Assembly: GCF_057098645.1 (NCBI RefSeq)
Contig: NZ_JBXSPU010000007.1
Length of the DNA: 3,133 nt
Origin: a plasmid
Strand: one strand, 5' to 3'
Part shown: positions 1-3,133 of the stretch, in pieces
Numbering within the stretch: the first letter of the stretch is position 1
Layout of the letters: the number at the start of each line of letters is the position of its first letter
Translations under genes and position numbers: made by a program
The notes under the pieces: generated by a model
Seen by the model: only the letters and a program-made list of their open reading frames with translations
Told to the model about the DNA's origin: nothing
Database searches by the model: none

Positions 1-189
1 GATTGTATTGTTTATCGCATTACGCAGAGCAACCTCAATCATCTGGACAAGACAAAAAAAATCGCCAGACAGATCTTGGTAGGCAACGTATGCCCCAACC
101 TTTTCTTGATCAGTAGCGCACCCAAGAAATGTTTCATAGAAAGATAATCTTGGTACAGAAATTGAGCTAATTAAACTTGTTGTATCCAT
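1..189 (-). CDS. Abi_2 (AbiD/AbiF-type) HEPN abortive-infection protein, N-terminal 63 codons. The ORF leaves the window at position 1 and continues in frame at 3133.
   Basis: Minus-strand ATG at 189..187, with an in-frame TGA 9 nt upstream, so this is the first possible start. A weak GTGAG Shine-Dalgarno sits 5 nt upstream. My translation is MDTTSLISSISVPRLSFYETFLGCATDQEKVGAYVAYQDLSGDFFCLVQMIEVALRNAINNTI, with no stop before position 1. The pattern (S..RL..Y, then a hydrophobic stretch, then E-V-A-L-R-N-A-I) matches the N-terminal conserved block of Abi_2 family proteins as I recall it. The ORF track missed it because it has no stop inside the window. Confidence 0.8.
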   Translation of the reverse strand, partial: MDTTSLISSISVPRLSFYETFLGCATDQEKVGAYVAYQDLSGDFFCLVQMIEVALRNAINNTI

Positions 190-290
190 GAAAACTCACT
201 TATCTCTTTACTATGAATATTTTTCAGACTACCATTACAACATTCGAGGAGCAGGCGAACTACCGTTTTTCTGTGTACCTCTAGAGCGTA

Positions 291-338
291 AAATATAACA
301 AAAAAGCCCACTACAGAGTGGGCTTTTTTGTTATATTT
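291..338. terminator. Bidirectional intrinsic terminator-like hairpin with a 22-bp perfect stem
   Basis: aaatataacaaaaaagcccact (291..312) is the exact reverse complement of agtgggcttttttgttatattt (317..338), with loop acag. The GC core gcccact/agtgggc is flanked by A6 on one side and T6 on the other, so it looks like a terminator on both strands. It lies about 100 nt upstream of the abi start codon on the minus strand. Confidence 0.7.
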
Positions 339-430: not shown

Positions 431-458
431 ATTTACCATAACTCCCCTTACGCGCACC
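431..458 (-). other. XerC/XerD core recombination site (11-6-11 layout)
   Basis: The reverse complement of 431..458 is GGTGCGCGTAA GGGGAG TTATGGTAAAT. That gives a XerC arm, a 6-bp central region and a XerD arm identical to the ColE1 cer XerD arm. Confidence 0.85.
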
Positions 459-558
459 GCTAAAACGCGCTGAACGCGATTCTGCCGCAAACACCGCAAA
501 AAGAGATGTTTTACCCAGTGAAAACCGGAAAAATGCGTCAGGACCGTTTTCAGCTCAC

Positions 559-647: not shown

Positions 648-971
648 CTAATCTGCCATAAGCCTGGATAACAGGGCCCGGTGATACTCCGTAATAGCGA
701 TCAGCACCTCCGCATACTCTCTGTCCCCGACACGCTTGCCGTCGATAAAGAGTTTTTTCTGTAACGCCCCCAGTCTCATAACTTCTTTCAGTACCCGATC
801 ATCAGTCAGTGAGTTAACTTTCTTACCGAGAGCTGCCGCCCGTAAAAAACCGGAAACGGTCTTGCCGCATTCAGCAGCCCTTTTTCTGATTTCCTGGTCT
901 TCTTCTGCCGTCAGACGAACAGGGCGACTGATAGCCCGCCTGCGCGTATTACTTCCACTTCGTTTTGTCAT
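648..971 (-). CDS. mobC: MobC-family ribbon-helix-helix relaxosome accessory (mobilisation) protein, 107 aa
   Basis: This lies inside the tracked ORF 648..1061. I place the start at the ATG 971..969 (MTKRSGSNTRRRAISRPVRLTAEEDQEIRKRAAECGKTVSGFLRAAALGKKV...), which has a GGAG 9 nt upstream. The longer start would run through the oriT inverted repeat. R.V.LT.EE......A...G.S.S.FLR.AALG is the classic MobC/RHH N-terminal pattern. Confidence 0.8.
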   Translation of the reverse strand: MTKRSGSNTRRRAISRPVRLTAEEDQEIRKRAAECGKTVSGFLRAAALGKKVNSLTDDRVLKEVMRLGALQKKLFIDGKRVGDREYAEVLIAITEYHRALLSRLMAD

Positions 972-1691: not shown

Positions 1692-2193
1692 TTTCCATAG
1701 GCTCCGCCCCCCTGACGAGCATCACAAAAATCGACGCTCAAGTCAGAGGTGGCGAAACCCGACAGGACTATAAAGATACCAGGCGTTTCCCCCTGATGGC
1801 TCCCTCGTGCGCTCTCCTGTTCCTGCCTTTCGGTTTACCGGTGTCATTCCGCTGTTATGGCCGCGTTATCTCATTCCACGCCTGACACTCAGTTCCGGGT
1901 AGGCAGTTCGCTCCAAGCTGGACTGTATGCACGAACCCCCCGTTCAGTCCGACTACTGCGCCTTATCCGGTAACTATCGTCTTGAGTCCAACCCGGAAAG
2001 GCACGACTTATCGCCATTGGCAGCAGCCACTGGTAACTGATTTAGAGGAGTTAGTCTTGAAGTTACGTGCCAGTTAAGGCTAAACTGGAAGAACAAGTTT
2101 TGGTGACTGCGCTCCTCTTAAGCCAGTTACCGAGGTTCAGAAACTTGCCGGTTGCTGAACCTTCGAAAAACCACCTTGCCGGGTGGTTTTTTC
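1692..2193 (-). ncRNA. RNAII: RNAII replication primer precursor
   Basis: The 5' end is inferred 7-8 nt downstream of the TAATCT -10, by analogy with pMB1 (gcaaacaaaaaaaccacc versus gaaaaaaccacc here). The 3' end is the RNA-DNA switch in the ggaaaaacgcc block, which is ggcgtttttcc on the plus strand around 1687..1696. Both ends are approximate to a few nt. Confidence 0.8.
2057..2086 (+). promoter_or_regulatory. RNAI promoter
   Basis: TTGAAG (2057..2062), an 18-nt spacer, then TAAACT (2081..2086). This is positionally equivalent to the pMB1 RNAI promoter TTGAAG...TACACT. Confidence 0.75.
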
Positions 2194-2195
2194 GT
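2093..2195 (+). ncRNA. RNAI: RNAI antisense copy-number/incompatibility RNA
   Basis: It starts at ACAAGTTTTGG (compare ACAGTATTTGG in pMB1 and ACAAGTTTTGG in p15A). Three stem-loops can be drawn: ggtgactg...cagttacc, aggttcag...ctgaacct, and the terminator ccacct-tgcc-gggtgg followed by T6. The 3' end is approximate. Confidence 0.85.
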
Positions 2196-2299: not shown

Positions 2300-2328
2300 T
2301 TAAGATTTGATGTCAGATATGGTATAAT
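2300..2328 (+). promoter_or_regulatory. Candidate sigma70 promoter with an extended -10, driving the small transcript convergent with abi
   Basis: TTAAGA (2300..2305), a 17-nt spacer, then TGgTATAAT with a perfect TATAAT at 2323..2328. It lies in AT-rich intergenic DNA between the RNAII promoter and the abi 3' end. Confidence 0.5.
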
Positions 2329-2401
2329 TAACCATTCAAATAGATGGAATAAAAAGTCAACGCTGCCATTAGAACGGCATAAGAAATAGAGGATTATGAA
2401 A

Positions 2402-2545
2402 ATGAATACTAAAGTTCTTTTTGTGAAAAAAGCCTTGAAATCAATTACTTGCGCAATTCTTTCGCTCTTACCGGCTTTAAGTCGCGCAGTAACAGAGTTA
2501 CGTAGCCTTTCGGCTGCGCGACTTAAAGCCGGTAAGAGCTTTTGA
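2402..2545 (+). CDS. Hypothetical 47-aa basic peptide (49 aa if translation starts at the ATG at 2396). Coding status is doubtful.
   Basis: AGAGGA (2388..2393) lies 8 nt upstream of the ATG at 2402. Translation: MNTKVLFVKKALKSITCAILSLLPALSRAVTELRSLSAARLKAGKSF, stop TGA at 2543..2545. Against coding: more than half the ORF is occupied by a perfect 26-bp inverted repeat. It falls below the size cutoff of the supplied ORF track. Confidence 0.25.
   Translation: MNTKVLFVKKALKSITCAILSLLPALSRAVTELRSLSAARLKAGKSF
2464..2539. repeat. Perfect 26-bp inverted repeat with a 24-nt spacer that can itself form two mini-hairpins (Y-shaped or three-way junction)
   Basis: gctcttaccggctttaagtcgcgcag (2464..2489) is the exact reverse complement of ctgcgcgacttaaagccggtaagagc (2514..2539). 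The spacer taacagagttacgtagcctttcgg contains taac-aga-gtta and (a)gcc-tttc-ggc(t). It lies 30 nt beyond the abi stop codon. Confidence 0.9.
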
Positions 2546-2569
2546 TTGTATCACATTTTTCCTTAAAAG

Positions 2570-3133
2570 TCAACCGGCTACCTTAAGCTCCCTGCACTTA
2601 ATCCTCCCTATAATCCCCATAACATACTCTATCGTGCAGCGTTCATAAAAGCGCCTATCGTGCCCAATAAACTCAATAAGTTCCTTTTTCTCGTTAGAGA
2701 CGATACTCAAGGCATTCATTAAAAAATTGAACTCTTTCAACATATTATTTATGGCTTGACTATGCGACTTGCAGTGGTGTTTTTTCCAAATAGGCTCATG
2801 GTGAAAAAGTCGATTCCTAAACAAAAGAACTTTATGAAACTCGTCAAACAACGCTTTAACCTTCATATCCCCCCCACCCAAAGGATTCTTCGCATGAGGA
2901 AATGTTTTTGCCTTGTTCTCTGGAGTCCAGATGTAGCACGGCCTTTGCGTATCCCTATATGGGGCATCTAACATATAAACCCAAAAGCCAAAGGTTAGAC
3001 GGCAAATAACATCATCATCCGTATACCTTACGCCACACTCATCTAGCGCTTTTTGTTTCGCATTTAAAACAAGATCCTGAGATTTCTTTGTTTGAGGTAT
3101 AGAGTCGTACCAAGCAGGCCCATGATTAGCTTT
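2570..3133 (-). CDS. Abi_2 (AbiD/AbiF-type) HEPN abortive-infection protein, C-terminal 187 codons plus stop. This is the continuation of 189..1 across the circular junction.
   Basis: The tracked ORF 2570..2974 stays open upstream to the window edge: 53 further stop-free codons starting exactly at 3133 (KANHGPAWYDSIPQTKKSQDLVLNAKQKALDECGVRYTDDDVICRLTFGFWVY, then MLDAPYRD...). It contains LTFGFW and FRNRLFHHEPIW (RNRLFH encoded at 2818..2801). That is the Rx4H HEPN-type motif and the RN..aHHe.iW signature typical of Abi_2. The stop codon TGA is at 2572..2570. Confidence 0.85.
   Translation of the reverse strand, partial: KANHGPAWYDSIPQTKKSQDLVLNAKQKALDECGVRYTDDDVICRLTFGFWVYMLDAPYRDTQRPCYIWTPENKAKTFPHAKNPLGGGDMKVKALFDEFHKVLLFRNRLFHHEPIWKKHHCKSHSQAINNMLKEFNFLMNALSIVSNEKKELIEFIGHDRRFYERCTIEYVMGIIGRIKCRELKVAG

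Follow-up and report, generated by a model that had tools for sequence, protein, structure and literature searches.

The window, i.e. the whole 3,133-base stretch analysed here (RefSeq assembly GCF_057098645.1, contig NZ_JBXSPU010000007.1), is a complete circular plasmid with a ColE1-type replicon, and several E. coli plasmid records, e.g. NZ_CP047017.1 and NZ_CP103602.1, have exactly its sequence. It carries an abortive-infection gene, abi, whose product has 250 amino acids (aa). We examined the element that lies between the abi stop codon and the RNAII promoter (~2300-2573), where two facing promoter-like sites, a small open reading frame (ORF) and a perfect 26-bp palindrome overlap one another. 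The original prediction had offered this element as a candidate partner of the Abi protein; the comparisons below suggest instead a cassette confined to one plasmid lineage, and they point to a conserved RNA motif upstream of abi as the likely partner. The features at the locus are as follows (positions are those of the window).

2300-2328, plus strand: promoter-like site P+, with -35 element TTAAGA (2300-2305), 17-nt spacer and extended -10 box TGgTATAAT (2320-2328)
2335-2401, plus strand: predicted 5' leader, which holds AGAGGA at 2388-2393
2402-2545, plus strand: 47-codon ORF, or 49 codons if read from ATG 2396, annotated by PGAP as hypothetical protein WP_152918943.1
2426-2463, minus strand: GNRA-loop mini-hairpin (2463-2437) and then U6 (2431-2426), overlapping the hypervariable patch 2434-2462
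2464-2539, both strands: 76-nt palindrome with arms of 26 nt each (2464-2489 and 2514-2539) and a 24-nt spacer (2490-2513)
2540-2549, plus strand: U-rich tail UUUUGAUUGU, directly after the stem; on the opposite strand the same bases are the -10 box of P-
2545-2573, minus strand: promoter-like site P-, with -35 element TTGACT (2573-2568), 17-nt spacer and extended -10 box TGaTACAAT (2553-2545)
2570-3133, minus strand: 3' part of abi, with the stop codon at 2570-2572
1-189, minus strand: 5' part of abi, with the start codon at 189-187; the gene crosses the window junction of the circular plasmid

A near-consensus extended -10 promoter aimed at the abi 3' end, followed by an AGAGGA Shine-Dalgarno sequence and an ORF of 47 or 49 codons, had been predicted from the sequence, and all three are present at the positions listed. 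P+ and P- are the only sites in the window that score at least 10 out of 12 together with the TG extension, compared with an average of 0.06 in dinucleotide shuffles, and the predicted transcription start of P+ lies near 2335. AGAGGA precedes ATG 2396 by 2 nt and ATG 2402 by 8 nt, and because of this spacing ATG 2402, the 47-codon start used by NCBI PGAP, is the better candidate. The 5' 129 nt of the predicted RNA (2335-2463) are no more structured than shuffled sequences (z = +1.0), hence this stretch looks more like the leader of an mRNA than like a structured RNA. The palindrome holds codons 22-47 of the ORF, and the stop codon UGA (2543-2545) falls within the U-tail, starting 4 nt past the stem.

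The perfect 26-bp inverted repeat with its 24-nt spacer does occupy the second half of the ORF, as had been described, and 30 nt separate the end of the hairpin from the abi stop codon. Its arms are 100% complementary, the chance expectation for such a repeat in 3.1 kb being ~2.6e-11, and the RNA hairpin has a predicted energy of -54.0 kcal/mol on the plus strand and -54.5 kcal/mol on the minus strand. It forms a GC island (0.54 GC) between flanks of 0.23-0.30 GC. The spacer had been expected to form two further mini-hairpins; this holds for the minus strand, where both appear in the minimum-energy structure, while the plus-strand spacer folds into one small structure. On the plus strand the -54 kcal/mol stem is directly followed by the U-rich tail, as in an intrinsic terminator. 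On the minus strand the stem is followed by GAAAGAAUUG, with no adjacent U-run. A U-tract restricted to the plus strand was thus correctly described for the immediate flank, but a U6 run (2431-2426) sits 32 nt past the stem on the minus strand. This U6 and the GNRA-loop hairpin before it possibly mark the end of abi read-through transcripts or of an antisense RNA of ~110 nt started at P-.

P- had not been mentioned in the original prediction. It overlaps the abi stop codon, equals P+ in quality and faces it at a distance of ~200 nt; the plus-strand U-tract, read on the opposite strand, supplies the -10 box of P-, which a single change (G2548A) in the natural variant L007 makes a perfect TATAAT. 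The predicted start of P- transcription, near 2538, coincides with the hairpin base. The resulting RNA of ~110 nt would consist of the 76-nt hairpin and the GNRA-loop hairpin, then U6, and the RNA 2539-2415 folds with z = -9.9.

To see which parts of the element vary, 17 sequences of the plasmid family were aligned. A block of 119 nt (2315-2433), which takes in the -10 box of P+, the leader, the ribosome-binding site (RBS) and both starts and extends to codon 11, has not one variable site (P ~0.001-0.02 for so long a gap); the -10 box is accordingly unchanged in all 17. The next 29 nt (2434-2462, codons 13-23 of the 49-codon frame) form a hot patch with 7 variable sites, and codon 18 alone shows three different replacements. 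In 16 of the 17 sequences the palindrome arms are unchanged; only L011 departs from this, and as a 484-nt contig with uncompensated arm changes and many other singleton differences it was regarded as a low-quality sequence. Point changes in the ORF comprise 3 synonymous and 5 non-synonymous sites, and 3 more non-synonymous variants occur among database proteins. The ratio of non-synonymous to synonymous polymorphism (pN/pS) is ~0.5-0.9 for the ORF, as against 0.25 for abi and 0.19 for mob. A comparison of homologous plasmids had been proposed to separate synonymous-only changes (coding) from compensatory paired changes (structure); what it shows is 3 synonymous and 5-8 non-synonymous changes. 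Larger changes were also found. In a metagenomic sequence (L010, protein variant P0007; ENA ERZ28660003, scaffold_38221), 13 nt of the spacer homologous to 2501-2513 are deleted, which removes one mini-hairpin, retains the 26-bp arms and shifts the frame so that the ORF becomes 77 aa long. A further database variant of 63 aa (P0005) appears to be an assembly artefact caused by fold-back at the hairpin. At the level of sequence, then, what is conserved is the predicted transcript start region and not the peptide.

The spacer itself has been turned around. In two independent metagenome contigs (L009 and L094) it is the exact reverse complement of that in the window, between identical arms, and the ORF remains open with 9 residues rewritten. 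The same was seen at a second perfect palindrome of the plasmid:

291-338, both strands: 22-bp arms with a 4-nt loop, resembling a bidirectional terminator, just 5' of the conserved motif described below

The window has ACAG as the loop of this second palindrome (313-316), whereas L003, L008, L093 and L094 have CTGT. Inversions of the two loops occur in independent combinations and must therefore be repeated events, and repeated inversion implies exchange between the arms by template switching or recombination. We infer that such arm-to-arm exchange by itself maintains perfect arms without selection. The argument that a perfect stem inside a coding sequence favours selection on RNA or DNA structure is weakened accordingly, as both perfect palindromes have repeatedly inverted their loops. 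In relatives, a hairpin with another stem sequence stands at the same place as 291-338, following a 96-aa HTH_17/AlpA-like gene that this plasmid lacks.

The peptide encoded by the ORF has 47 aa and is very basic (pI 11.2). Its best 19-residue Kyte-Doolittle window scores 1.65, is broken by KK and is borderline; the corresponding windows of known type I toxins score 1.7-2.5 (Hok, Fst, TisB and BsrG 2.2-2.5). A word-based search of 5.8 billion proteins returned variants of the same locus only, an exhaustive phmmer search of 1.84 billion representative proteins found no relative beyond that locus, tblastn of 72,556 plasmids found the same locus only, and neither Pfam nor PADLOC profiles matched the ORF. 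It is an orphan. An identity as a lipoprotein or colicin-lysis protein was considered and rejected by eye, there being no proper lipobox or signal peptide.

The DNA of the element is limited to one lineage, a single family of 3.1-kb E. coli and Salmonella plasmids: 23 of 72,556 PLSDB plasmids have it, as do 27 of the 5,426 complete E. coli genomes, each time with an identity of 95% or more. The copies in E. coli genomes are always this plasmid, free or integrated whole, and the palindrome has no copies outside it. The two chromosomal matches are the whole plasmid integrated between IS26 copies, as in E. coli strain 44 (L020, NZ_CM132959.1, 3377700-3382365); IS91 insertions were observed in other relatives (L021). 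Element DNA was absent from the phage collection and the arm sequence from viral contigs; a metagenome scan with a 33-mer of the start region gave 3 contigs, all of this plasmid; and no arm-like sequence was present in 303 kb of related loci. The palindrome is flanked by TTTC and TTTT, with no target-site duplication. An origin as a dispersed palindromic repeat or miniature inverted-repeat transposable element was rejected on these grounds, i.e. no copies beyond this plasmid and no target-site duplication.

A protein search gave 63 relatives of Abi, many of them on contigs of 2-7 kb, and for the comparison of DNA we used the loci of the closest relatives together with 71 more distant loci from reference genomes. 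With the element 2280-2569 as query, nhmmer found no match in ~80 homologous abi loci. In the 200 nt downstream of abi at 74 loci, the longest perfect inverted repeat measured 6 bp in the median and never exceeded 19 bp; no repeat was related to the palindrome. The abi genes of L012-L018 are 67% identical to that of the window, are likewise on ColE1 plasmids and have the same orientation; downstream of these genes there is neither an ORF nor a long hairpin, and the RNAII start and RNAI terminator come ~65 nt after the abi stop codon. The suggestion that the hairpin or ORF is a partner of the HEPN protein is thus not upheld: the original prediction had itself named absence from homologous abi loci as a refutation, and the element is absent from 74 of them. 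Pairing in trans with the abi leader fared no better: the duplex energies of the plus-strand RNA, of either loop and of the tail of the P- RNA did not exceed those of shuffled sequences. We conclude from these comparisons that the cassette is not a conserved RNA partner of Abi. Most of the close Abi relatives (L012-L017, L098-L104) are cargo of small plasmids of ColE1 or Rep3 type; in these, abi comes after an HTH_17/AlpA-like gene of ~96 aa, which is missing from the window and is possibly a third component.

For the Abi protein itself, the PADLOC profile PD-T4-5 matched with E = 6.6e-30 and Pfam Abi_2 weakly (19.9 bits, under the 25.6-bit cut-off), and the HEPN R-x4-H motif, RNRLFHH, is unchanged among 29 Abi relatives. 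A structure model (predicted local distance difference test score, pLDDT, 94) was compared with the PDB by Foldseek. The top match was 8vz6_A, 'PbAbiF dimer bound to ncRNA' (non-coding RNA), with probability 1.00 and a template-modelling (TM) score of 0.55; the next scored 0.19, leaving 8vz6_A as the sole credible match. A sequence-profile search of the PDB with the Abi alignment gave no match, so that only the comparison of folds did. Judged by the model, Abi is an AbiF-fold HEPN protein of the PD-T4-5 kind. The literature presents PD-T4-5 as an abortive-infection gene that is carried on a plasmid and has a distant relationship to AbiF/D (PMC9519451). In genes of the AbiD/F group the upstream sequences are more conserved than the genes themselves (PMC13064643, PMC12373285, PMC12737573), and the ncRNA antitoxin of AbiF is encoded upstream on the same strand and, as a type III antitoxin, binds AbiF (PMC12373285, PMC13064643, PMC12737573).

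A sequence in the corresponding position is present on the plasmid:

238-292, minus strand: conserved structured RNA motif of 55 nt with covariation, in the same strand sense as abi and 50-110 nt ahead of it

Its consensus (292-238) is TTTACGYTCTAGAGGTACAC-NNN-AAAAC-loop-GTTCG-NNN-GCTCCTCGA. All 9 readable lineages that are at least 45% identical carry the motif upstream of abi and in its strand sense (coordinates outside the window: L012 2023-2077, L019 3372-3427, L022 1253-1303 and 1304-1358, L096 1900-1953, L098 1889-1943, L100 1467-1524, L103 1868-1931), with two tandem copies in the Arsukibacterium locus. In the alignment 92.5% of cells are paired, with compensatory changes at 4 pairs; covariation scores 0.234, whereas shuffles score 0.082, with none of 500 reaching the observed value, and slid controls at most 0.053. 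Moreover, the upstream region outconserves abi: in the comparison with the Aeromonas locus L019, window positions 245-330 are 79.5% identical, the coding DNA 66% and the protein 53%. No Rfam family, the abiF motif RF03085 included, matched the motif in searches of the window (E up to 1), of 18 homologous loci and of the abi leader alone, and the motif model had no match in Abi relatives of 39% identity or less. Like the known systems (AbiFr of the Prevotellaceae AbiF, PDB 8VZ6; RCd22 of C. difficile; Rfam RF03085), the downstream element is a non-coding candidate beside an AbiF-fold, R-x4-H HEPN protein; but the known antitoxin RNAs are upstream, on the same strand and conserved with the toxin, whereas the element is downstream, on the opposite strand and absent from relatives. 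RF03085 is unmatched here. It is the motif 238-292, and not the downstream element, that fits the published description. As its position is that of the AbiF antitoxin, the candidate partner is to be sought upstream and not in the downstream hairpin, and the motif is likely the type III antitoxin RNA of this AbiF-fold subfamily, the best RNA-partner candidate at the locus.

For the downstream element, we favour a lineage-specific cassette of convergent transcription (~2300-2573), the hairpin of which would terminate and insulate between abi and the RNAII promoter; this reading is tentative, and we hold it at somewhat less than an even chance. P+ would produce an RNA of ~210 nt, with 5' 130 nt that are unstructured and translatable (RBS and 47 codons) and a 3' end at which the 76-nt GC-rich hairpin and the U-tail would act as intrinsic terminator. 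Minus-strand transcripts, either abi read-through or the P- RNA, would carry the same 26-bp stem as an RNase III substrate and a block to 3' exonucleases. The cassette may in this way end and insulate convergent transcription, keeping abi transcription out of the replication-control region and plus-strand transcription from running antisense into abi. Promoter firing, termination at the hairpin and the insulating role are inferred. The proposal that the hairpin terminates a small plus-strand transcript, part of the original prediction, stands as a prediction only: it is the natural reading of promoter, RBS, ORF, stem and U-tail in this order. In favour of the cassette are features that exceed chance, its gene-like layout, with hairpin and U-tail at the very end of the ORF, the unstructured, mRNA-like 5' part, the invariant 119-nt block from -10 box to codon 11 while neighbouring stretches vary, and the position between the abi stop and the RNAII promoter. 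With intrinsic terminators, including bidirectional ones between convergent genes, it shares a GC-containing stem and then a U-run on the plus strand, and a place between convergent units.

Several points weigh against the cassette. Its stem of 26 bp and structured loop of 24 nt are atypical for an intrinsic terminator, where a short stem (~5-14 bp) and a loop of 3-8 nt are the rule; a scan for consensus terminators with loops of at most 8 nt did not report the hairpin; there is no adjacent U-run on the minus strand; and the whole hairpin lies inside an ORF. Invariance of the arms alone is not significant (P = 0.07). In the sister plasmids abi and RNAII stand side by side without any insulator, which shows that one is not needed in general, and an insulating role leaves the strong promoter and good RBS upstream of the hairpin unexplained. 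In addition, absence from homologous loci shows the element to be no family-wide partner, but a lineage-specific regulatory effect on abi would be compatible with it.

The surroundings of the cassette include the replication and mobilisation functions of the plasmid:

2095-2195, plus strand: RNAI (Rfam, 95.9 bits); the primer RNAII is therefore on the minus strand
~2230-2202, minus strand: RNAII promoter, placed by eye
1256-1450: Rop gene
648-971, minus strand: MobA/NikA-like gene
near 1510-1590: pBR322-like primosome assembly region, placed by eye
~432-459, minus strand: cer-like XerCD core (GGTGCGCGTAAGGGGAGTTATGGTAAAT), by eye
1927-2040, plus strand: WP_071790583.1, a 'replication initiation protein' of 37 aa in RefSeq, within the primer region of RNAII; this call is probably spurious

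A search of the window with all Rfam families (E up to 1) returned RNAI alone, besides chance-level miRNA- and leader-like matches on both palindromes, and ARAGORN found neither tRNA nor tmRNA. A literature search with the plasmid and protein accessions found nothing. The hairpin was also considered as a multimer resolution site, and this was rejected, the cer-like XerCD core being elsewhere.

The rival explanations are taken here in falling order of probability. An ordinary small protein gene, in which the basic 47-aa peptide has its own function and the terminator overlaps its 3' half by chance, is unlikely. The RBS 8 nt before ATG 2402, the PGAP annotation, the unstructured 5' region, the invariant block up to codon 11 and a frame that stays open despite inversion of the spacer would all suit it; but the peptide has no relatives beyond its own locus, its pN/pS exceeds that of abi and mob, codon 18 has been replaced three times, L010 is frameshifted and the inversion rewrites 9 residues. 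Nor is an open frame of 49 codons rare, since the window contains 33 ORFs of at least 30 aa. Quite unlikely is a lineage-specific control of abi, by antisense pairing or by RNase III cutting the 26-bp stem in the 3' untranslated region of abi, so that toxin mRNA would be lowered. A 26-bp stem is long enough for RNase III. That abi transcripts reading through the hairpin would be fully complementary to the plus-strand RNA, as originally proposed, follows from the geometry, and with no U-run right after the minus-strand stem they probably span the whole hairpin. The retroregulator sib of lambda int offers a parallel, a long hairpin just 3' of a gene that is present in read-through transcripts only and is a substrate of RNase III; here, however, a perfect stem is combined with a convergent promoter, and RNase III cleavage and two classes of abi transcript are hypothetical. 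Set against this control are the 74 homologous loci with nothing comparable and the closest relatives wholly without the element, the conserved upstream RNA that already holds the position of known antitoxins, and the want of complementarity to the abi leader, even though Abi toxins require tight control (PMC12373285).

We also doubt, more firmly, a cis-antisense pair of type I kind, in which P+ would give the mRNA of a toxic or membrane peptide and P- an antisense RNA of ~110 nt covering the 3' 110 nt of that mRNA, as a plasmid stabiliser independent of abi. The arrangement does recall loci with a 3' overlap or a common terminator, bsrG/SR4, txpA/RatA and par fst/RNAII of pAD1: convergent promoters ~200 nt apart (here both of extended -10 type), a small ORF with a borderline hydrophobic window, and a putative 3'-overlapping antisense RNA, which is predicted to fold very stably and to end at a small hairpin and U6. 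Type I toxin-antitoxin modules are, moreover, often found on small plasmids. The peptide, in contrast, is basic and only marginally hydrophobic, its lysine-broken stretch being weaker than those of Hok, Fst, TisB and BsrG; it is an orphan without sequence constraint and with a natural frameshifted variant, and the -10 box of P- may merely be the complement of the terminator's U-tail. We find it improbable that the palindrome acts at the DNA level without RNA function, as a by-product of template switching or as a single-strand hairpin that primes replication or transfer. The recurrent, independent loop inversion at both palindromes, the tolerated loop deletion and the high GC content of the hairpin amid AT-rich DNA, a hint of separate origin, speak for it; against it are the gene-like arrangement of promoter, RBS and U-tail around the palindrome, the primosome assembly region already present elsewhere on the plasmid, and the finding that the palindrome is not dispersed, with no genome copies outside the plasmid, no similar arm in the 303 kb and no target-site duplication. 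As a long shot, the locus may be an attenuator that senses translation, the frame encoding a leader peptide whose sequence does not matter. In the pyrBI (pyrL) attenuator a frame of ~45 codons likewise runs across the whole terminator hairpin, with its stop in or after the U-tract, and given such a frame a ribosome closely trailing RNA polymerase would prevent termination. At the present locus such a ribosome would melt the hairpin and let plus-strand transcription proceed antisense through abi and its leader to the terminator at 291-338, whereby the toxin would be held down; once translation falters, as it might when a phage takes over or Abi begins to act as an RNase, the terminator would form, antisense transcription would stop and abi would be released. 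In difference to pyrBI, however, what lies downstream is abi in antisense and no co-directional gene, and there is no evident nucleotide-sensing pause logic. If true, the attenuator would explain the invariant promoter, leader and start, the unconstrained peptide, the placement of the stop codon and an ORF over the hairpin in every variant, those with an inverted spacer or a shifted frame among them.

Returning to the lineage-specific cassette, the finding as given matters little for Abi systems at large, for it would concern an orphan accessory cassette and not a general Abi feature. The natural evidence for repeated loop inversion bears on the weight that 'perfect stems' can carry as evidence of selection. 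For cloning and annotation of this plasmid-borne, PD-T4-5-like defence gene some caution is advised, in that the downstream hairpin and mini-ORF do not belong to the conserved system, while the upstream 55-nt motif and hairpin probably do. This motif, unmatched in Rfam and associated with an AbiF-fold subfamily on small plasmids, would extend the theme of AbiF RNA antitoxins to the relatives of PD-T4-5.

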